Below are positions 27,818-42,018 of a stretch of 64,000 bases of DNA, piece by piece; position 1 is the stretch's first letter, and each line of letters opens with the position of its first letter. The stretch covers positions 32,573 through 96,572 of the forward strand of contig CAWCTR010000018.1 of NCBI GenBank assembly GCA_963798485.1. The letters run 5' to 3'. The notes under the pieces are model-generated. The model saw nothing but the letters and a program-made list of their open reading frames with translations, made no database searches and was not told the DNA's origin. The stretch comes from an uncultured delta proteobacterium. GTDB lineage: Bacteria; Desulfobacterota; Desulfomonilia; UBA1062. A program made the translations under genes and the position numbers.

Positions 27818-30019
<2,202 letters not shown>

Positions 30020-30575: not shown

Positions 30576-31805
30576 TCAATTCGTAGAGCTTGACGGCTGC
30601 TTCCACGCCTTTGCCATTTCTTGCGCCTGCGCAATTTGGGCCGGTGTCATCTGGTGCGCCATGGTATCGAGATTGGTGTTTGCAGTCTCTATACCTTGCT
30701 CCGCTGCGAGTTTGAAACATAAATAGGCCTGCATATAATCCTTTGGTACCCCGGTGCCGTTGCTGTACAGGAGCCCTAAATTGTACAATGCCTTGTCGTA
30801 ACCTTGCTCTGCAGCCTTCTGGAACCACTTGGCCGCCTCTTCATAGCTTTGTTGGACGCCCTTGCCGCCCGCGTACAGGAGTCCGAGATTGAACTGAATG
30901 ACTGCATCACCCTGTTCGGCTGCCATGAGGTACCACTTGGCCGCCTCAGCATAGTCCTGGGGCACCCCCAGGCCATGGTCAAAGAAATAACCGACATAAC
31001 CCTGCGAAAGGTTATTCCCCTGCTCTGCAGCCATGCGGAAGTAGTAGGCGGCATCGGAAAAATTCTGATGCACGCCCTCGCCGTTGAGATAAATAAACCC
31101 AAGGCTGCTCTGGGAATGGGTGTTTCCCTGTACGGCAGCCAAGGAGTACCACTTGATGGCCTCTGCATAGTTCTTTGCTACACCCGCTCCGTTGCTGTAG
31201 ATGTCTCCGAGAGTACTCTGTGACTCAACATTGCCTTGATCGGCAGCCTTGCGGTACCACCGCACGGCCTCTTTCAGATCCTGGGCTAAATCCTTGCCGT
31301 GATAATAGATATTCCCCAAGCCTCTTTGGGCCTCGACGTCACCTTGGATTGCTGCCTTGCGGTACCACTTTTCAGCCTGTACATAATCCTGCTTAACGCC
31401 CATGCCCCGGTAATAGATGAACCCGAGGTTGCTTTGCGCCTTTACATAACCCTGCCCCGAGGCCTCGGTGAACCATTTGGCAGCCTCGGCATAGTTGCGT
31501 GTTACCCCCATGCCTTTATAATACATGATGCCCAGGTTGAACTGGGCCTCCATGTTGCCGTTTTCCGCTGCCTTCCGGAACCACCTGGCTGCCTTGATAA
31601 AGTCCTGTGATACCCCCCACGCATTGATATACATGAGTCCAAGATTATACTGGGCTTGGGCATTTCCCTGCTCGGCAAGGGGAAGGATCTCGATGAGGGC
31701 ATGCTGGTAGTCTTTATTCCTTATTAGGGGAACGGATGTATTGCCGGCGCTGCACGAACAGACTAAAAAGGTTATTATGAGAATCAGGCATGATGTTTTT
31801 CTCAT
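30576..31805 (-). CDS. Sel1-repeat (SLR/TPR) exported protein, possible lipoprotein
   Basis: About nine 36-aa repeats AQxNLG.MY..G.GV.QD...A..W...AA.QG; signal peptide with Cys. Confidence 0.93.
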   Translation of the reverse strand: MRKTSCLILIITFLVCSCSAGNTSVPLIRNKDYQHALIEILPLAEQGNAQAQYNLGLMYINAWGVSQDFIKAARWFRKAAENGNMEAQFNLGIMYYKGMGVTRNYAEAAKWFTEASGQGYVKAQSNLGFIYYRGMGVKQDYVQAEKWYRKAAIQGDVEAQRGLGNIYYHGKDLAQDLKEAVRWYRKAADQGNVESQSTLGDIYSNGAGVAKNYAEAIKWYSLAAVQGNTHSQSSLGFIYLNGEGVHQNFSDAAYYFRMAAEQGNNLSQGYVGYFFDHGLGVPQDYAEAAKWYLMAAEQGDAVIQFNLGLLYAGGKGVQQSYEEAAKWFQKAAEQGYDKALYNLGLLYSNGTGVPKDYMQAYLCFKLAAEQGIETANTNLDTMAHQMTPAQIAQAQEMAKAWKQPSSSTN

Positions 31806-32110
31806 GGGTATCCCTCCCGTCATCACATTAAATAATACTGTATGGTTATATCCGATCTCTTCACCTTCCATGCTGCCTCAATCGGAATTCTAATATGTAG
31901 CATAATTTTGCTTGAGATGCAAGCCCAGAGTGATTTGGGTAGTGTCCTCCTCGACTTTGATTTTTTAGAATCTATTCTCATATGCCTCTTTCCGATAATC
32001 TATATTTTAAGATGTAATGCCTTGATGGAACGATTCTTCAAGGCCCTTTTATCTCAGTAGTCTTGAGAAAACGCTTGACAGAGAGCCCTTGTACGTGGAA
32101 ATACAAAGGG

Positions 32111-32179
32111 ATGTTCCAAAAGACAGCAACCCAGGCTTATTATTACGGCTTTTACTTTAGGAAGGGCGTTTGCCCATAG
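32111..32179 (+). CDS. Tyr/Phe-rich attenuator leader peptide (22 aa)
   Basis: ATG..TAG encodes MFQKTATQAYYYGFYFRKGVCP; 6 of 7 consecutive codons are Tyr/Phe; overlaps mutually exclusive hairpins. Confidence 0.88.
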   Translation: MFQKTATQAYYYGFYFRKGVCP

Positions 32180-32243
32180 GCCTGGTTGCCGGTAATCCCA
32201 ACAGACAAGGTCATGGGCAAAACCCATGGCCTTTTTTTATTTT
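32126..32243 (+). promoter_or_regulatory. Transcription attenuator (anti-antiterminator, antiterminator, terminator)
   Basis: 1:2 = 32126-32140 with 32176-32189; 2:3 = TTTGCCCAT (32169-32177) with ATGGGCAAA (32213-32221); 3:4 = terminator. Confidence 0.85.
32207..32243 (+). terminator. Intrinsic terminator in leader of iorA
   Basis: AAGGTCATGGG-CAAAA-CCCATGGCCTT followed by a T-tract, upstream of the iorA SD. Confidence 0.9.
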
Positions 32244-32264
32244 CAGCCAGGAGAGGGATAACAT

Positions 32265-33992
32265 ATGAAGAAGATCCTCAGCGGCAATGAGGCGGTGGCG
32301 CGGGGTGCGTATGAGGCAGGTATTTCCTTTGCCGCAGCATATCCCGGCACACCCAGCACCGAGATCCTTGAAACCATTGCAAAGGAATACAAAGACATCC
32401 ATTCCGAGTGGGCCCCCAACGAGAAGGTGGCCCTGGAGGTGGCGGTGGGCGCATCGTACGCAGGCGTACGGGCGCTGGCCGTTATGAAGCACGTGGGGGT
32501 GAATGTGGCGGCGGACCCGCTCATGACATTGCCATATACCCTTATACGGGGCGGTATCGTGCTCATCAGCGCGGATGACCCCGAGCTGTTCTCCTCCCAG
32601 AATGAGCAGGACAACCGCCATTATGCCAGGTTTGCAAAAATCGCCATGCTTGAGCCTTCAAGTTCGCAGGAGGCAAAGGATTTCACAAAGGAGGCCTTTA
32701 CGATCAGCGAGGAATTCGGCACACCCGTTATGGTGCGGACCACCACGCGGATCGCGCATTCCATGGGTGTTGTGGATCTATCAGAACCCTTGGTGCGGAA
32801 AACCCCCAGCCTGGAACGGCACCCCGCAGAGTGGGTCATGCTGCCTGCCAATGCCAGGCGCCGCCACCCTGTCATTGAGGAGCGTATGCTTGCCCTGAAG
32901 AAGCTTTCAAACACCACTTCCATGAACTACATGGAGATGGCTGATACCAAGATAGGTATCATCTCTTCGGGGGTGGCGTATCAATATGCCAGGGAAGCAT
33001 TTTCCAATGCCTCCTTCCTGAAGATCGGCATGCCGTACCCGTTCCCGGATAAGTTGGTCAGGGAGTTCGCCGGCAAGGTGAAAGAGTTGTGGGTCGTGGA
33101 AGAACTTGATCCATTCATGGAGGAGCAGGTAAAGGCCTTGGGTATTGCTTGTCACGGCAAGGACCGTATCCCCATGTGCGGAGAGCTGAACCCGGATATC
33201 ATCAAGGCCGCCATCTCAGGCGAGCCTGTGGTAAAGCCCGGCCAACCTGCGCTGCCCGGAAGGCCGCCTTCCATGTGCCCGGGTTGCCCTCACCGCAGCA
33301 TGCTCTGGGCCCTTAGGCGGAATAAAACATTCATAGCAGGCGACATCGGATGCTACACCCTGGGCTTTTTGCCGCCTCTGGACGCCATTGACACGTGTCT
33401 GTGCATGGGCGCAGGCATCAATCATGCCCACGGTATGTCCAAGGTGTTCGGACCGGGCAAGGAAAAGCTCACTGCGGTCATCGGCGATTCCACCTTCTAT
33501 CATTCCGGCATCACGGGGCTTTTAAACCTCGCGTATAACCGGGGCGCGGCATTGATCGTGATTCTGGACAACCGGACGACGGCCATGACCGGCGCACAGA
33601 ACCACCCGGGTACGGGCGTTACCATTGAGGGGCAAAAGAACACCACCATAGACCTTGAAGGCCTGGTGAAGGCCCTTGGTATCGAGTGGGTAAAGACCAT
33701 CAACCCCTATGATGTCAAAGGTGCGCGGCAGACGGTGAAAGAGGCCCTGGCCTCCAGCGGCCCCTCGGTCATCATTTCAAAGGCGCCGTGCGTATTGCTC
33801 AAGACACGCTCCGTGCCGGGCAAACCTTTACGTGTGGACGCCCTGAAGTGCACGGGCTGCAAGGTGTGCCTTTCCCTTGGATGTCCGGCCCTTGAATTCA
33901 AAGACGAGAAGGCGCATATTAACGAGGTTTGTGTGGGTTGTAATGTATGCGCAGACCTCTGCAGCGTAGAAGCCATCGGAGGTGAAAAATGA
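32265..33992 (+). CDS. iorA: Indolepyruvate (arylpyruvate):ferredoxin oxidoreductase alpha subunit
   Basis: GNEAVARG, YPGTPSTE, MKHVG.NVAAD, SSQNEQD, CPGCPHR, GDIGCY, two C-terminal 4Fe-4S motifs. Confidence 0.95.
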   Translation: MKKILSGNEAVARGAYEAGISFAAAYPGTPSTEILETIAKEYKDIHSEWAPNEKVALEVAVGASYAGVRALAVMKHVGVNVAADPLMTLPYTLIRGGIVLISADDPELFSSQNEQDNRHYARFAKIAMLEPSSSQEAKDFTKEAFTISEEFGTPVMVRTTTRIAHSMGVVDLSEPLVRKTPSLERHPAEWVMLPANARRRHPVIEERMLALKKLSNTTSMNYMEMADTKIGIISSGVAYQYAREAFSNASFLKIGMPYPFPDKLVREFAGKVKELWVVEELDPFMEEQVKALGIACHGKDRIPMCGELNPDIIKAAISGEPVVKPGQPALPGRPPSMCPGCPHRSMLWALRRNKTFIAGDIGCYTLGFLPPLDAIDTCLCMGAGINHAHGMSKVFGPGKEKLTAVIGDSTFYHSGITGLLNLAYNRGAALIVILDNRTTAMTGAQNHPGTGVTIEGQKNTTIDLEGLVKALGIEWVKTINPYDVKGARQTVKEALASSGPSVIISKAPCVLLKTRSVPGKPLRVDALKCTGCKVCLSLGCPALEFKDEKAHINEVCVGCNVCADLCSVEAIGGEK

Positions 33993-34558
33993 ACGTGCTC
34001 ATGACTGGTGTCGGAGGGCAGGGCATCATCCTTGCCTCTGATGTACTGACTGAGTTGATGATGCGCCATGGTCTGGATGTGAAGAAATCCGAGATACACG
34101 GCATGGCCCAGCGAGGTGGAAGCGTCATGTCTCATGTGCGTTTTGCCCGGCATGTTTCATCGCCCCTTATCCCCTATGGCTGCTGCGACATCCTGCTGTC
34201 ATTCGAGGAACTGGAGACCGCGCGCTATATGGAGTATATCAAGGCCGATACCATCGTGATCATCAACCGGTTCCGGCTCTCTCCGCCTACGGTCATTGCA
34301 GGAAAGGAATCTTACCCGGACATTGTCCCGGTCCTGAAAGAAAAGGCTCTGAATATCCGGATGGTTGACGGCAGCGCCCTGGCGTCCGAGCTGGGCAACG
34401 CCAGAGGTGTAAACGTTATCCTGCTTGGTGTGCTCTCAATGGTGCTTGAGCCTGCCGAGTCGCTCTGGATAGAGACCCTGACCGATATGCTCCCCGAGAA
34501 GATCAGGGTCCAAAACATTGAAGGCTTCAAACGGGGAAGGCTCTTAAAGGCCCAGTGA
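33989..34558 (+). CDS. iorB: Indolepyruvate oxidoreductase beta subunit
   Basis: GVGGQG, SEIHGMAQRGGSV..HVRF; overlaps iorA stop. Confidence 0.95.
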   Translation: MNVLMTGVGGQGIILASDVLTELMMRHGLDVKKSEIHGMAQRGGSVMSHVRFARHVSSPLIPYGCCDILLSFEELETARYMEYIKADTIVIINRFRLSPPTVIAGKESYPDIVPVLKEKALNIRMVDGSALASELGNARGVNVILLGVLSMVLEPAESLWIETLTDMLPEKIRVQNIEGFKRGRLLKAQ

Positions 34559-34586
34559 ATTATCTTCAGACAGGAGGTTTTAAGGA

Positions 34587-35888
34587 ATGATCTACAATGA
34601 GGAATTCGAGACATTGCCCCGGGAGGTGCTGGACTCTTTGCAGCTGAAACGCCTCAAGAACGTGGTGGAGCGCGTCTATCACACCGTGGGGTTTTACCGG
34701 AAAAAGTTCGATGAGGCCGGCGTTACCCCGGAAGACATCCACTGTCTTGATGATCTGAAGCGTCTTCCCTTCTCCACCAAGCAGGACCTGCGCGACAACT
34801 ATCCTTTCGGGCTTTTCAGCGTGCCCATGAACAACATTGTAAGGCTGCATGCCTCATCCGGCACTACGGGAAAGCCCACAGTCGTCGCCTACACCAAGCG
34901 CGATATCGAGACCTGGGCCGAGCTTATGGCCAGGTCCTTTGCAGCGGCAGGCCTCACGAAAAACGATATCATCCATAATGCCTATGGCTACGGCCTGTTC
35001 ACCGGCGGCCTTGGGGCACACTACGGCGCAGAGAGGCTCGGGGCCAGCGTCATCCCCATGTCGGGCGGCAACACCAAGAAGCAGATCATGATACTGCAGG
35101 ACTTCGGACCTACGGCCATATGTTGCACGCCGTCGTACCTCCTGTTCCTTGCCGAGAAGGGCGAAGAGATGGGCATCGACATGAAGTCGCTGCGGCTCCG
35201 GGTGGGGGTCCTTGGCGCCGAGCCCTGGAGCGAGCGCATGCGCACCGAGATAGAGAGCAGGCTCGACATCACGGCGCTCGACATCTACGGCCTGTCCGAG
35301 ATCATGGGCCCGGGTGTTGCCATGGAGTGTATCGAAGGCCGCAACGGTCTGCATATCTTTGAGGATAACTTCATTGTGGAGGTCATCGACCCGGCAACCG
35401 GCGAGGTCCTTCCCTATGGCCAGCGGGGCGAGATCGTGTTCACCACCCTTACCAAAGAGGCCTTCCCGCTCATCAGGTACCGGACCAAGGACATCTCAAG
35501 GCTCATGCCCGAGGTATGCCGCTGCGGAAGGACCTTTGTTCGCATGGAGCGGGTCTCAGGCCGGAGCGATGACATGTTCATCATCCGGGGGGTGAATGTC
35601 TTCCCGTCCCAGATCGAGAGTGTTATCATGGAGGTCAAAGGTCTAGAGCCTCACTACCAGCTCATCCTGGAGAGGGAAGGGTCTCTGGATACCCTGGAGA
35701 TCCAGGTGGAGGTGAGCGAAAAGATCTTTTCGGATGAGATAAGGCAGCTGCAGAATCTTGAGCGCCGCATTGCCAAAGACATCAAGGATTATATCGGTAT
35801 CTCAGCCAAGGTGAAGCTTGTGGAGCCGAAGTCTCTGCAGCGCTTCGAAGGCAAGGCCCAGCGGGTGATTGACAGGAGAACCATGTGA
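34587..35888 (+). CDS. paaK: Phenylacetate-CoA ligase
   Basis: [59 protein letters not shown]. Confidence 0.95.
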
Positions 35889-35902
35889 GGGGAGGTCAGA
35901 GT

Positions 35903-36334
35903 ATGAAGGTGGAACAAATATCGATCTTTTTGGAAAATAAACCCGGCGGTCTCTCGGGCGTAACAAAGGTGCTCAAGGATTCCAGCATCAATATCCGGGC
36001 CCTCTCGCTGGCGGACACGAGCGATTTCGGTATCTTAAGGCTTATCGTGGACGATGTGACCAAGGCCAAGAAGGTGCTCAACGAGAACGGCTTCGCCGTT
36101 GGCCGCACCCATGTGCTGGCCGTAGAGGTCCCGGACAGGCCGGGGGGGCTTCACAGCATCCTCGAGCTTCTCACCAGGGAGGGCATCAATGTCGAATACA
36201 TGTATGCCTTTGTAGAGCGCAGCGGCGAGAACGCGGTAATCATCTTCCGGTTCGACAACATCGACCAGGCCATCGAAGTTCTTCTGAAAGGCGGCTTCAC
36301 CGTGTTGAAGGGAGAGCAGGTCTACAACCTCTAA
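35903..36334 (+). CDS. Tandem ACT-domain protein
   Basis: [42 protein letters not shown]. Confidence 0.92.
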
Positions 36335-36407
36335 TAAATAAATAAGAACACCCATAACTTTTATGGGGGTCTTACTATAACTTTGCAGTAAAAGAAGGAG
36401 GAAAAAG

Positions 36408-37526
36408 ATGAAGAAGCTTTTAATGGTGTGGGCACTGTGCCTGTGTGTTCTCTGCATGGGTATCTCCGGGGCAAAGGCAGATGACATCAAGATCGGGGCC
36501 ATCCTGCGTCTTTCCATCGGTGCATCCGACGGCATACCGGCAAAGCGCGGCATTGAGATCGCGGTCAAAGAGATCAATGCAGCAGGCGGCATCAAGGGAA
36601 AACCCCTTGCAGTCATCTACGAGGACTCCAAAGATTCAGCCCAGGCCTCTGTGAGTGCATTCCAGAAGCTCACCTCCATGGACAAGGTCCAGGTTATCAT
36701 CGGCCCAATGATGAGCGGTGAGGCCTTGGCTGTAGCGCCTATTGCCAAGACGGATGGTATCGTTGTCATCACCCCGACCGCTACATCGCCGAAGGTCTCG
36801 GGCTCGGGCCTCTACCGCGGCTGTACCAGGATCGACAAACAGGCCGAGGCCCTGACAAAATACGCGAAAGACGTATTGAAGACGACAAAGGTCGCCATCC
36901 TGTACAGCAACGAGCCCTATGGCAAGGGATGCAACGAGGTATTCACCAAGTTCTTCACAGATGTGGGCATCCCTGTTGTGATCGCCGAGAGCTTCATGGT
37001 CGGCGACCGCGACTTTTCCGCCCAGCTCACCAAGATCAAGCAGAGCCAGTTTGACCTCATATTCATCCCCGGTTACCTCCAGGAGACTGCTCCCGCCATC
37101 TCCCAGGCCCGCAAGCTCGGCATAAAGGCTGTTTCCATGGGTGTGTACGGCGACATGGCACCGAAGTACATCGAGCTTGCAGGCAAGGCTGCACAGGGGC
37201 ATGTGAACGGGAGCGAATACAACGAGGCGTACAACACGCCTACCAACAAGAAGTTCAAGGCCGAATACTACAAGATCATCAAGGACAACCCGTCTGAGAC
37301 AAACAACATCATGTTCGCCGCCATCACCTATGACATGACGAAGATGGTTGCCATGGCCATTGCCGAGAAAGGGTATACCCCTGAAGGCATCAAGGGCTAC
37401 CTGGACACCGTGAAGGACTTTGACGGCGTGACCGGGAAGCTCAGCTTCGACAAGAACGGCGATGTGGTGAAGCAGGGCGTGTATCTGTTCAAGGTGAAGA
37501 ACGGGAAATATGTAAAGGCCCAGTGA
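36408..37526 (+). CDS. HAAT-family ABC substrate-binding protein (LivK-like)
   Basis: Signal peptide, A..EINAAGGI.G, DFSAQLTKIK, F.GVTG..FD.NGD. Confidence 0.9.
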   Translation: MKKLLMVWALCLCVLCMGISGAKADDIKIGAILRLSIGASDGIPAKRGIEIAVKEINAAGGIKGKPLAVIYEDSKDSAQASVSAFQKLTSMDKVQVIIGPMMSGEALAVAPIAKTDGIVVITPTATSPKVSGSGLYRGCTRIDKQAEALTKYAKDVLKTTKVAILYSNEPYGKGCNEVFTKFFTDVGIPVVIAESFMVGDRDFSAQLTKIKQSQFDLIFIPGYLQETAPAISQARKLGIKAVSMGVYGDMAPKYIELAGKAAQGHVNGSEYNEAYNTPTNKKFKAEYYKIIKDNPSETNNIMFAAITYDMTKMVAMAIAEKGYTPEGIKGYLDTVKDFDGVTGKLSFDKNGDVVKQGVYLFKVKNGKYVKAQ

Positions 37527-37527
37527 T

Positions 37528-38388
37528 GTGCTGATCCAGCAGCTTGTGAACGGCCTTGTGGTGGGCAGCGTGTATGCGCTGATCGCCCTTGGCTACACCA
37601 TGATTTACGGCATCCTGGGCATCATCAATTTCGCCCAGGGTGAGATATACATGTACGGCGCCTTCGGCGCCGTACTTACTTTAGCTGCAACCGGAGAGCT
37701 GGGTCTGGCGGTACTCGTAGGTATCGGTACGGCGTGCCTGGTGGGTTTACTCCTGGAGCGCATCGCATTCAGGCCGTTGCGCGGCATGCACCCCCTGATA
37801 CCGCTGATCAGCGCCATCGGTGCATCCATATTGTTGAGCTCCCTTGCCAGGCTCCTCTTCGGCCCTGATGACCGGTCCTTCCCCATAGAGTTCCACCCGG
37901 TAAGCTACATCATTCTCGGCGCTGCCGAGATTACCGGTCTGCAACTCATCATCATGGGGGTCTCCTTCAGCCTCATGGTGATCCTGTCGCTCTTCATCAA
38001 CATGACCAAACACGGCAAGGCCATCATGGCCGTTGCCATGGACTCGGATGCGGCACGCCTTTCGGGCATCAACGTGAACAATGCCTATGTGATCACCTTT
38101 CTCTTGGGCTCCGCCTTGAGCGGGGTAGCCGGTATCCTCATGGCGGTCTACTACAATGCCACCTCTTTCAGCATGGGGGTGCTGCCAGGGCTCAAGGCCT
38201 TTTCGGCAGCGATTTTGGGCGGGGTAGGGTCCATCCCCGGGGCCATCGTGGGAGGGCTCGTCCTGGGCATTGCCGAGAACCTCGGGGCTGCGTACATTTC
38301 GTCGAACTTCAAGGATGCCTTTGCCTTTATCGCACTTGTGCTCGTGCTCGTTATCAGGCCGCGCGGCATCATGGGGTCGAGAAAATGA
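37528..38388 (+). CDS. livH: HAAT ABC permease (LivH-like)
   Basis: GSVYALIALGYTMIYG...INFAQG, AAILGGVGSIPGA, RPRG. Confidence 0.9.
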   Translation: MLIQQLVNGLVVGSVYALIALGYTMIYGILGIINFAQGEIYMYGAFGAVLTLAATGELGLAVLVGIGTACLVGLLLERIAFRPLRGMHPLIPLISAIGASILLSSLARLLFGPDDRSFPIEFHPVSYIILGAAEITGLQLIIMGVSFSLMVILSLFINMTKHGKAIMAVAMDSDAARLSGINVNNAYVITFLLGSALSGVAGILMAVYYNATSFSMGVLPGLKAFSAAILGGVGSIPGAIVGGLVLGIAENLGAAYISSNFKDAFAFIALVLVLVIRPRGIMGSRK

Positions 38389-39250
38389 GCATATACATCC
38401 TCCATGTCCTCATCATGGTCACGATCTATGCGATCCTCGCATTAAGCCTGAATATCATCGTAGGCTTTGCCGGGCTTGTGTCACTGGGGCATGCGGCATT
38501 CTTCGGCATAGGCGCATACGTAAGCGGCCTTCTCATGTTAAAGGGACTCGGCTTTGTGAGCGCGTTTTTTCTCACAGGAATTATCACCTCCGTTCTGGGT
38601 CTTTGCCTTGCCCTGCCGGCGCTGCGGGTAAAGGACGACTACCTGGCCATTGTCACCCTAGGGTTCGGTATCATCACCACCCTGGTCTTCATGAACCTCG
38701 ATATCACGGGCGGGCCTGACGGCCTGGTTGGGATACCACCCGTGACTTTGTGGGGCAAGCCGGTCTACTCCAAGTGGGCATTCTTAAGCCTTACAACGGC
38801 CATCCTTACCGTAATGGTCCTTTCGGCATACACGCTGAAGCAATCCAAGATCGGCAGGGCCTGGGCCGCCATCAGGGATAACGATGTCGTGGCCATGTTC
38901 ATGGGCATCAACACCTCATATTACAAGGTGCTGGCCTTCATCACCAGCTCCTTCTGGGCCGGCCTTGCAGGAAGCCTGTATGCCCATTACACGGCCTATA
39001 TCAACCCGCAGACGTTCGGCATGCATACCTCCATCATGATCCTTTCCATGGTGGTCCTAGGCGGCATCGGGAGCATTCCCGGATCGCTCCTGGGGGCTAC
39101 TCTGATTATTCTGTTGCCTGAAATCCTGAGGCCGCTTGCCGACTACCAGGACATCTTCTACGGGGCTCTCCTCGTATTCATGATGGTCTTCAGGCCCCAG
39201 GGCATCATGGGCAGGGTAAAGATCACGGAGATGTTCGGGAGGAAGAAATA

Positions 39251-39251
<1 letters not shown>
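38385..39251 (+). CDS. livM: HAAT ABC permease (LivM-like)
   Basis: SLGHAAFFGIGAY, YLAIVTLGF, TGGPDG, GRAW.AIRDN. Confidence 0.9.
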
Positions 39252-39975
<724 letters not shown>

Positions 39976-39979
<4 letters not shown>

Positions 39980-40740
39980 TTTTGAAGGCGGTAGCGCTCT
40001 CCAAGAGTTTCATGGGCATCCATGCATTGAGTGATGTGTCCCTTGATGTGGTGAAGGGGGAGATCTTAGGCGTCATCGGTCCCAATGGGGCGGGCAAGAC
40101 CACGTTGTTCAACGTGCTCACCGGGCTTTTTGATGCGGATACCGGGCGCATAGAGCTGGGCGGCAGGGCCATCACAAGGCTCATGCCCCACCGCCGGGTC
40201 AGGCTCGGCATGGCCAGGACCTTCCAGAACCTTGAGATATTCCGTGATATGAGCGTGCTGGAAAATGTCATGGTGGGGGGGCATACGAGGCTCAAGGCAG
40301 GCTACTGGCAAAGCATGCTGGGCACGTGGGGCAAGCGGAAAGAAGAGAAGGCGCTCAGGGATGAATCGCTTGCGCTCCTTGACCGGCTCGGCATAGGAGA
40401 GTCGGCCCATGAAGCCGCAGTGAGCCTGTCCTACGGCAATCAGCGCAGGGTGGAGATCGCCAGGGCCTTAGCCGCCAGACCGGCCATCATATTCCTGGAT
40501 GAGCCTGCGGCCGGCATGAATCCCAAGGAGACCCGGGAACTCTCCGAGCTCATCGTGAGGCTCAAAGGCGAGCTGGAACTTACTGTCGTAATCATCGAGC
40601 ATGACATGAACCTCATCATGGACATCTGCGACCGCATTGTGGTGATGACCGAAGGGAGGGTGCTCTGTTCGGGCGTTCCGAGCGACATCCGGAAAGACCC
40701 CAGGGTCTTGGAAGCCTATCTGGGAGGGGAGATATTATGA
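39976..40740 (+). CDS. livG: HAAT ABC ATPase (LivG-like)
   Basis: GPNGAGKTT, ARTFQN, LSYGNQRR.EIARAL, DEPAAGMN, IEHDM. Confidence 0.9.
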
Positions 40741-42018
40741 TGCATGAAACACTCTACGAGACGATGCCGCGCAGCGAACTGGAGGTCTTTCAGCTCGAAC
40801 GCCTCCAGTCCACACTGAACAGGGCGTATCTGAACGTCGCCCACTACCGCAGGGCCCTCGATGGCGCGGGCATCCTGCCTGATGATGTGAGGTCGCTCTC
40901 CGACATCAAGAACCTGCCCTTTACCACCAGGGCCGATATCGAGAAGGGCTACCCCTACGATATGTTCGCCGTGCCGCTGCGTGAGGTGGTGCGCATCCAC
41001 ACCTCTTCCGGCCAGGCGCGCAAGCCCATTGTCACCGGGTATACGGCAGGCGATCTGAAGGCATGGGCCAGGCTCATGGCCAGGTTCCTGGTGGGGGCGG
41101 GCATTTCCAAGGACGACGTGATCCAGATCGCCTTCCGCTACGGCCTCATGACCGGCGGGTTCGGCTTCCACGCCGCAGCCGAGCTTATCGGCGCATCCGT
41201 CATCCCTGCCGACATCGGCAATACCGCAGAGCAGGTCATGATCATGCACGACTACCTCACCTCCATCATCGCCTGTACCCCCGGTTATGCCCTTATCCTG
41301 CTGGACAGGATCAACCAGATGAACATCAACCCCAGGACACTGCGCCTCAGGCGGGCGATTTTAGGAGCCGACCGGTTGAGCCCGATGGTGCGCTCGAAGA
41401 TCGAGCAGGGCCTCGGCGTGGAGGTGTTCAACAGCTATGGCTCCAGCGTGGTCATGGGGCCGGGCATAGCGGGTGAGTGCGGCGCGCATGACGGGCATGC
41501 ACGTGTATGAGGACTTCTTCATTGCCGAGGTCGTGGACCCCGCTACCGCAACGGTGCTGGGCCCGGGCGAAAAAGGCGAGCTCGTGATAACGACCCTCAT
41601 GCGCGAGGCCTTCCCCCTGATCCGCTACCGCACGGGCGACATCACCATGATAAAACAAGGTGTATGCCCCTGCGGCAGGACCCACATGAGGCTCGAAGAC
41701 TTTTACGGCAGGCTGGATGATACCATCAAGATCAAGGGTGTCAGCGTATCTCCCGAGCGGATCCTCCAGATTCTCAAGGCCGAAGGGGTGGAGGCCAGAA
41801 GCCAGGTACGCATATACCGGGAAGGCCCCTTCGAGCGCGCCGATGTCCTGCTTGAGGTGGGAGAGAAGCTGTTCTTCGATGAAATGAGGGCCCAGAAGTC
41901 CTTTATGGAAAAGCTCGAAAAGGCGCTCCATACGGGTACCAGCGTGCGTATAGGCGTGAGGATCGTCCCTTCTTCGGCATTCAAAGGCAAGGCCATGGTG
42001 GTGGATGAACGGGAGTAG
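40737..42018 (+). pseudogene. Second phenylacetate-CoA ligase paralog, split by a +1 frameshift (pseudogene or assembly error)
   Basis: ORFs 40737-41510 and 41473-42018 join into a full PaaK homolog (…GECGAHDG|MHVYED…) if one G of GGG at 41493-41495 is removed. Confidence 0.85.

Follow-up and report, generated by a model that had tools for sequence, protein, structure and literature searches.

What governs entry into the iorAB-paaK-ACT-liv genes of an uncultured delta proteobacterium (GTDB lineage Bacteria; Desulfobacterota; Desulfomonilia; UBA1062) is the question raised by the short intergenic leader in front of iorA. The leader lies in a stretch of 64,000 nucleotides, called the window below (assembly GCA_963798485.1, contig CAWCTR010000018.1, positions 32,573 to 96,572 of the forward strand). 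A first-pass annotation of the window, made from its letters and open reading frames (ORFs), had read the leader as a Tyr/Phe-sensing attenuator with trpL/pheL architecture and had regarded such a target as outside the textbook cases. Leader-peptide attenuation is known to act on operons for biosynthesis and on genes for tRNA synthetases, chiefly those of enterobacteria and of a small number of other groups. After a computational analysis of the leader and its relatives, we consider it very probable that the element attenuates transcription through a leader peptide read by the ribosome, with the charging levels of tRNA-Tyr and tRNA-Phe as the signal. The mechanism is the known one of the trpL/pheL class; the sensed pair and the target are new, and the start of the peptide is probably leaderless.

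Alternative folds of the leader

The whole element is compact, about 165 nt (Table 1). Its 22-codon ORF with the run TAT TAT TAC GGC TTT TAC TTT was found at 32111-32179, as annotated, and six of seven consecutive codons specify Tyr or Phe. The minimum-free-energy fold of 32105-32245 (RNAfold) consists of a 1:2 hairpin and a terminator, at -51.3 kcal/mol; 200 dinucleotide shuffles of the same segment gave -36.1 +/- 3.7 kcal/mol (z = -4.1), and none folded as well. The 1:2 pairing of 32126-40 with 32176-89, proposed earlier, is part of this fold at exactly these positions. The proposed 3:4 terminator with a U-tract (32207-33) was likewise recovered, both by the fold and by a terminator scan, as an intrinsic terminator with an 11-bp stem containing 6 GC pairs and a 5-nt loop. 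The first two T of its T7 (32232-33) close the stem, its end lies about 25 nt upstream of the iorA ATG, and it ranks among the strongest terminators of the region in the scan. The 2:3 pairing had been placed at 32169-77 with 32213-21; the position holds and the extent does not, as the real helix has 14 bp, joining 32169-77 and 32179-83 with 32208-21 and leaving A32178 bulged. The stop codon (32177-79) sits within the 5' arm of this antiterminator, so a ribosome at the stop would cover that arm. As isolated helices, the 1:2 hairpin, the antiterminator and the terminator have energies of -26.0, -22.9 and -17.1 kcal/mol, respectively. A search with all 4227 Rfam models gave no relevant match; the only two hits were chance-level eukaryotic families (E 0.77 and 3.9) on the minus strand within iorA.

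To represent a ribosome, a 28-nt stretch around each A-site codon was made unpairable in a transcript ended at 32222, where segment 3 has been made and segment 4 has not. For the window leader, the probability of the antiterminator was 0.03 without a ribosome, 0.03 with the ribosome at codon 1 and 0.24-0.26 at codons 2-3; it was 0.86-0.96 with the A-site at codons 4-16 and no more than 0.06 at codon 17 and beyond, up to and including the stop. In silico, the last seven positions where a stalled ribosome permits antitermination are codons 10-16, those of the Tyr/Phe run. The scan was extended to 37 leaders, with antiterminator pairs defined by motif and a position called permissive at a probability of at least 0.5; L054, whose segment 3 is off-pattern, was excluded. 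A different metric, which asked whether the 5' arm was paired with anything upstream, was dropped as unspecific, since the arm also pairs with the spacer. Among the 37 leaders, 215 of 228 Tyr/Phe codons permit the antiterminator, and a ribosome on the stop codon blocks it in all 37. In these models, the conserved core of the switch is a ribosome stalled upstream as opposed to a ribosome on the stop codon. The masks therefore reproduce the stall logic of the first-pass annotation, in which a ribosome stalled on the Tyr/Phe codons covers segment 1, frees segment 2 and allows read-through, and support it in silico.

We propose that the attenuator would work as follows. RNA synthesis would begin at the leader ATG or slightly upstream of it. 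With ample Tyr and Phe, the ribosome would reach the Pro-TAG stop and cover the 5' arm of the antiterminator; segment 3 would then pair with segment 4, and the 11-bp terminator and U-tract would halt RNA polymerase before iorA. If charged tRNA-Tyr or charged tRNA-Phe runs short, the ribosome would stall on codons 10-16 (YYYGFYF), melt segment 1 and free segment 2, and the 14-bp antiterminator would form before segment 4 exists, causing read-through into iorAB-paaK-ACT-livKHMGF. If the leader is not translated, the strong 1:2 hairpin of this genome would sequester segment 2 and lead to termination.

Conservation and covariation in relatives

The class of this genome was covered by 122 species genomes in two families, its own (f1) and a sister family (f2). 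The leader DNA was detected in 10 of the 14 other genomes of the genus and in three further f1 genera. We examined 450-500 nt upstream of the iorA orthologues at 46 f1 loci, 38 of which carry an ATG-started Tyr/Phe-rich ORF of 16-24 codons that ends in Pro-TAG and is followed by a terminator. One of the remaining loci lies at a contig end, and seven are without the element (four genomes of genus g10 and three single genomes, one of which retains a leader-like ORF with just three Phe). The peptides diverge strongly in sequence (YYYGFYF, GFYFFIF, YYFYFYY and NFTFFLSFF in the run; MLPNTLELLGFYFFIFRGMKVRP, MTERVDTKAYYFYFYYRMSLCP and MNFTFFLSFFRPGRCP are examples), and the Tyr/Phe run persists. Tyr and Phe make up 29% of the 846 leader residues, compared with about 7% in this genome's long ORFs. 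Six codons come after the run's last Tyr/Phe codon in 21 of 38 leaders and five to eight in 36, and in all 38 both the ATG and the stop of the Tyr/Phe frame are conserved.

Helix statistics from the alignment of these 38 leaders agree with two of the three pairings. In the terminator, 96.0% of the cells are paired, compared with 15-63% when the 3' partner is slid by one to three columns; 11 cells carry double changes, and the covariation score was reached by none of 500 column shuffles. For the antiterminator, the paired fraction is 87.7%, against 25-42% when slid, with double changes at five pairs (13 cells) and a covariation score again reached by 0 of 500 shuffles. The slid controls are the fairer comparison, because the genomes are kin and the shuffle counts overstate their independence. 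In three genomes, one position has changed in all three strands (GTCCAT in segment 2, ATGGAC in segment 3 and TCCAT in segment 4), which is what one strand shared by two helices predicts. The same sharing explains why the segment 2 core GCCCATAGGCC and GGCCATGGGC are almost invariant, since segment 3 has two partners to match. Cys, Arg or Ser can stand before the final Pro, with the bases GC kept, and the Pro-TAG end can thus be explained at the RNA level. The 1:2 hairpin is less conserved in distant relatives; its outer four pairs are 67% paired in the 14 close relatives. The architecture assigned by the first-pass annotation is therefore both present and conserved, and the two signs named there as checks in relatives, Tyr/Phe-rich ORFs upstream of iorA orthologues and covarying stems, were found at 38 of 46 f1 loci and, as compensatory changes, in both the terminator and the antiterminator.

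The search was also taken beyond the family. An exact-motif scan of one genome per species (185,579 species) returned 30 matches, 28 of them before iorA, one before a livK-like gene and one at a contig end. These matches come exclusively from uncultured genomes, whose deposited names are Desulfomonilia, Deltaproteobacteria, Syntrophaceae (UBA1062), Thermodesulfobacteriota or 'Bacteriovoracaceae'; they largely overlap the f1 genomes and are not independent of them. In the sister family, 26 iorA loci were sampled and none had this element. In other families of the phylum, none of 60 sampled iorA loci had a short Tyr/Phe/Trp-rich ORF with a T-run in the 500 nt directly upstream, a sampling that leaders placed before upstream genes would escape. 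Because the exact-motif matches are confined to this lineage and 0 of 60 loci elsewhere in the phylum were positive, the element, judged by its sequence distribution, is a family-level invention. Two loci of one other family, L162 and L163, have a conserved ORF of 57-60 residues with YFEYYF before iorA, which was taken as a small protein, being too long and too conserved for a leader peptide. Its pattern is ...LIIYHLH.RAKLYFEYYF...GF.ELILFY, and it stands directly before iorA with a T-run after it.

Conservation extends to the promoter. CTTGACA is invariant in all 14 of the closest aligned leaders, and TTGACA stands 29-39 nt upstream of the ATG in 37 of the 38. A consensus promoter scan left 32075-103 unscored because of its weak -10 box. 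Only 7 nt separate the end of the -10 box from the leader ATG. The conserved spacing TTGACA-17-GAAATA-7-ATG suggests that the leader ORF is leaderless or nearly so, with transcription predicted to begin at or just before the ATG. Leaderless poly-cysteine short ORFs are attenuators in mycobacteria; these resemble the present case in being regulatory short ORFs that lack a Shine-Dalgarno sequence and whose start coincides with, or adjoins, that of the transcript (a position read here from promoter spacing only), and differ in sensing Cys and in belonging to Actinobacteria. The conserved -10-to-ATG spacing suggests leaderless leader peptides outside Actinobacteria. With respect to codon choice, 81% of the leader Phe codons are TTT (98 of 121), whereas the long ORFs, counted in this genome only, favour TTC (62%).

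Both strands of the 4.3-Mb genome were scanned for a short ORF with at least five Tyr/Phe in seven residues and a terminator within 90 nt, and only this locus was returned. Its singularity in the genome, the family conservation and the compensatory changes together argue that the element is not a product of chance. When the scan was widened to other amino acids, it turned up a Trp-rich (WWW) leader ORF, MTRKNATSKTIRWWWRTMNKGIRGGLP, with a 12-bp terminator on contig C7 (553198-553336). The following gene has an N-terminus that reads as trpE-like, from its sequence and without a family scan. The promoter spacing of the Trp leader is TTGACA-17-TATAGA-6-ATG, so this ORF also looks leaderless. The WWW leader and its terminator suggest that leader-peptide attenuation is in use in this organism.

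What the leader may sense, and competing explanations

The closest textbook parallels are pheL-pheA, pheST and trpL of E. coli, which share with the window leader a short ORF with a codon run, mutually exclusive 1:2, 2:3 and 3:4 pairings and a terminator before the first gene (described in part in PMC11802643, and in textbooks). As in pheL and trpL, the position of the stop codon means that a ribosome terminating there would block segment 2. The differences are several: the codons are mixed Tyr and Phe instead of only Phe or only Trp, a Shine-Dalgarno sequence is lacking, the ATG stands about 7 nt after the -10 box, the stop lies inside the antiterminator arm, and the target is a set of IOR, PaaK, ACT and LIV genes, not a shikimate-branch or tRNA-synthetase gene. 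In logic, the nearest published relative is the AroR leader peptide (Phe-Tyr-Phe), which attenuates the aroF operon of Corynebacterium glutamicum (Neshat et al. 2014, as reported in the pertinent part of PMC11802643). Both leaders carry mixed Phe/Tyr codons before an operon for aromatic amino-acid supply. However, on that account AroR belongs to an actinobacterium, targets DAHP synthase and has three regulatory codons, compared with six of seven codons here, where the operon would serve salvage and uptake.

Whether both amino acids are sensed is a separate matter, on which we lean towards yes with some reserve. The alternative is that the leader responds to Phe only (or to Tyr only) and that the other codon type is a passenger, as for AroR, which, in the same portion of PMC11802643, responded to Phe limitation and not to Tyr limitation; dual sensing can therefore not be assumed. 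The drift of leader composition from YYYGFYF (four Tyr, three Phe) to NFTFFLSFF (no Tyr, five Phe) would also suit a single sensed amino acid. However, the window leader has three consecutive Tyr codons (Y10-Y12) at the start of the permissive stretch, and some copies have Tyr without Phe: the stand-alone liv leaders of G110 and G109 contain five or six Tyr and no Phe, and the G005 leader has five Tyr and no Phe. These Tyr-only copies indicate that Tyr codons alone are kept by selection in some copies, and we regard single-amino-acid sensing as unlikely. As the window's Tyr-containing leader is well supported and has sister copies with Tyr alone or Phe alone, the group offers a natural test set for codon-specific sensing. 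A leucine sensor would at first sight fit a LIV-type transporter, given that the frame one base back (32089-32160) reads LLLRLLL*, that this -1 frame is Leu-rich in the window and in many relatives, and that leuA of the relative G001 is preceded by a genuine Leu-rich leader whose terminator is similar. However, the Leu-richness is a by-product of TTY and TAY codons. The frame has no conserved start (here it begins at a TTG inside the promoter spacer), it contains stops inside or at the run in L015, L036, L039 and L051-L058, its closing stop is lost in G004 and G002 (LLLRLLLSK), and in the aroF leader of G028 the -1 frame is not Leu-rich at all; a leucine sensor is thus extremely improbable.

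The switch might instead be set by a protein or a small ligand, or by a TnaC-like nascent peptide slowed at Pro-TAG by free Phe or Tyr. Slow release at a Pro-stop is known from TnaC, and all 38 leaders end in Pro-TAG, although among this genome's long ORFs TAG is the least used stop (255 of 1187) and 6% end in Pro. Moreover, one gene product of the operon has an ACT domain and might bind amino acids. However, the conservation of CCATAG is accounted for by RNA pairing, the TGT variant of the codon before the final Pro covaries with segments 3 and 4, and Rfam offers no family match. The placement of the Tyr/Phe run, fixed five to eight codons before the stop, is a prediction of codon stalling for which a ligand model has no need. 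We consider this explanation improbable, though less so than a leucine sensor, and prefer attenuation by a ribosome stalled on Tyr/Phe codons.

Several observations count against this preferred explanation, or against parts of it. A Shine-Dalgarno sequence is neither present at the window leader nor conserved in the aligned leaders, and translation of the peptide would depend on the presumed leaderless start. In the full leader at equilibrium, the terminator keeps a probability of 0.29-0.96 with the ribosome on codons 10-16, which is no clean switch and tells against one driven by thermodynamics alone; since the terminator remains competitive, read-through would depend on kinetic trapping, with the antiterminator forming first. 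Such dependence is usual for attenuators. Without a ribosome, the antiterminator probability falls below 0.2 in only 14 of the 37 leaders, so the untranslated state that terminates because the 1:2 protector wins is not a conserved feature. Seven of the 46 family loci do without the element, which must therefore be dispensable, and at the four g10 loci and in G017 it is absent with the TTGACA promoter retained. No Tyr/Phe leader was found in this genome before its own pheA-hisC-tyrA-aroA cluster. Furthermore, the anabolic direction assigned below to IOR and PaaK is deduced from the sign of the regulation alone.

The operon downstream and related leaders

The genes behind the leader are those first annotated, iorAB-paaK-ACT-liv (Table 1). 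By sequence, iorA and iorB encode the two subunits of indolepyruvate (arylpyruvate):ferredoxin oxidoreductase (IOR). The first ligase gene is called paaK-like because its PaaK score falls just under the cut-off. The second is broken into two overlapping frames, through either a frameshift in the gene or an error of assembly. The LIV binding protein is nearest to LIV proteins of solved structure that bind amino acids (E 5e-40 to 1e-29), and its matches to aromatic-acid binders are far weaker (about 1e-12). The terminator scan found no other strong terminator inside 32264-42000.

Table 1. Positions, within the window, of the leader elements and of the genes that follow them
Feature	Position	Strand	Basis or remark
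Intergenic leader region	32075-32264		between the divergent Sel1-repeat gene (30576-31871, minus) and iorA (32265-33992)
Putative sigma-70 promoter	TTGACA 32075-80; GAAATA 32098-103	+	17-nt spacer; sequence reading
Leader ORF, 22 codons + TAG, MFQKTATQAYYYGFYFRKGVCP	32111-32179	+	ATG from 32111, TAG to 32179
Regulatory codons Y10 Y11 Y12 G13 F14 Y15 F16 (TAT TAT TAC GGC TTT TAC TTT)	32138-32158	+	
Segment 1	32126-32140	+	5' strand of the 1:2 (protector or pause) hairpin; minimum-free-energy fold
Segment 2	32169-32189	+	32176-89 pair with segment 1; 32169-83 are the antiterminator 5' arm, including the stop 32177-79
Segment 3	32207-32221	+	terminator 5' arm 32207-17; antiterminator 3' arm 32208-21
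Segment 4 and T-run	32223-32243	+	terminator 3' arm 32223-33; T7 32232-38, then A, T4 32240-43
iorA	32265-33992	+	Pfam; NCBIfam IOR_alpha TIGR03336, 737.9 bits (equivalog cut-off 650.9), full length
iorB	33989-34558	+	Pfam; best IOR beta model 223 bits (cut-off 237)
paaK-like arylacetate-CoA ligase	34587-35888	+	PaaK TIGR02155, 639.4 bits, below the equivalog cut-off of 646.3, full length
ACT-domain-pair protein	35885-36334	+	Pfam
livKHMGF, LIV-type ABC importer (substrate-binding protein, two permeases, two ATPases)	36408-40740	+	Pfam
Second paaK-like gene, two overlapping frames	40737-41510; 41473-42018	+	PaaK model positions 1-241 and 246-415

Since the switch would open on a shortage of charged tRNA-Tyr or tRNA-Phe, the operon is expected to supply these amino acids, and we think it somewhat likelier that it runs in the biosynthetic direction than in the reverse. 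In this supply route, the LIV system would take up substrate, PaaK would activate arylacetates and IOR would reductively carboxylate the arylacetyl-CoA to arylpyruvates, which would then be transaminated. The genome also encodes chorismate synthase and a pheA-aminotransferase-tyrA-aroA cluster (the last three genes assigned from family matches and N-terminal sequence only). With the de novo shikimate route present, the IOR route would be a second, salvage pathway. A precedent is found in Methanococcus maripaludis, which makes aromatic amino acids from aryl acids by a second route that depends on IOR (Porat 2004, as covered in part of PMC4162585). Both organisms would have a biosynthetic IOR beside de novo synthesis, here represented by pheA, tyrA and chorismate synthase; the precedent, so far as that account goes, is archaeal, whereas the direction in the present operon is taken only from the regulatory sign. 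We know of no attenuator on the M. maripaludis route.

Among the 'possible promoters and riboswitches' of Geobacter metallireducens and G. sulfurreducens is a conserved sequence located 5' of 'tryptophan (iorAB-paaK)' (Aklujkar et al. 2009, in the relevant section of PMC2700814). Like the leader described here, it is a conserved non-coding element that immediately precedes iorAB-paaK, and it comes from a different lineage of the former delta-proteobacteria; that section gives no mechanism for it, and the two are compared by description alone, not by sequence. No published leader-peptide attenuator on an ior/paaK operon was found in the literature searched, which did not extend to attenuator surveys in subscription journals. 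The portions of Rodionov 2004 (PMC545781) and Naville and Gautheret 2010 (PMC2965389) consulted contain nothing relevant on attenuators for ior. The view of the first-pass annotation that the target is not a textbook one agrees with this search, in which no paper linking ior/paaK with a leader peptide came up.

On a bolder reading, which builds on the movable cassette proposed below, arylacetate salvage through reverse IOR, together with uptake of aromatic amino acids, would be the transcriptionally regulated source of Phe and Tyr, no comparable leader having been found before the de novo pheA-tyrA genes. These anaerobes would then live partly on arylacetates excreted by fermenting neighbours, and ior-paaK clusters annotated as catabolic would be biosynthetic in this family. 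Such clusters are usually annotated as amino-acid fermentation, and the sign of the switch provides regulatory evidence on their direction. This bears on how ior-paaK genes are interpreted in metagenomes from sediments, digesters and guts.

Leaders at other loci may belong to the same regulatory circuit. In G015, G110 and G109, the livK orthologue is unlinked from iorA and has its own copy of the promoter-leader-terminator cassette; the iorA leader of G110 is Phe-biased (FYFYFCFF). In the sister family, 27 of 30 DAHP synthase(-pheA) loci (L014, L120-L149) have Tyr/Phe(/Trp)-rich short ORFs upstream, such as MNGRFSSYYYYYFSYVCPWARGG and ...GVYFYFWRYYYSSVYPLPEGYRD. At L014, the sole locus examined downstream, pheA follows DAHP synthase, and two terminator-like hairpins stand in tandem. 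The stand-alone liv leaders, the codon bias in G110 and the DAHP synthase leaders would fit a Tyr/Phe regulon. We tentatively speculate, at somewhat less than even chances, that the leaderless promoter-leader-terminator unit is a movable cassette, placed before iorAB and separately before liv and retuned to Tyr-only, Phe-only or mixed runs.

Two further leaders deserve mention. At locus L016 of G001 (contig C83, locus positions about 1300-1560), a Leu-rich leader, MMSIQAQDLKKGNSLHLNADLLLLCLLLDDPRPSAHGYP, precedes leuA with a purine-rich 5' untranslated region. It has a nearly identical terminator (GGCCATGGGC...GCCCATGGCC and a T-run) with an GCCCATCGGC element upstream, and this similarity suggests that attenuators for different amino acids in the lineage may share a common cassette. 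In genus g10 (L210-L213), the same CCTTGACAG promoter, upstream of the livK orthologue, is followed by a five-codon mini-ORF, MRYYK*, and no terminator hairpin was seen after it; the mini-ORF looks like a decayed remnant of the Tyr leader.

Upstream of the leader in the window, a catalase-peroxidase-like gene with two peroxidase domains occupies 27830-30019 on the plus strand. The gene at 30576-31871 on the minus strand, divergent from the leader promoter, encodes a Sel1 protein with nine repeats.

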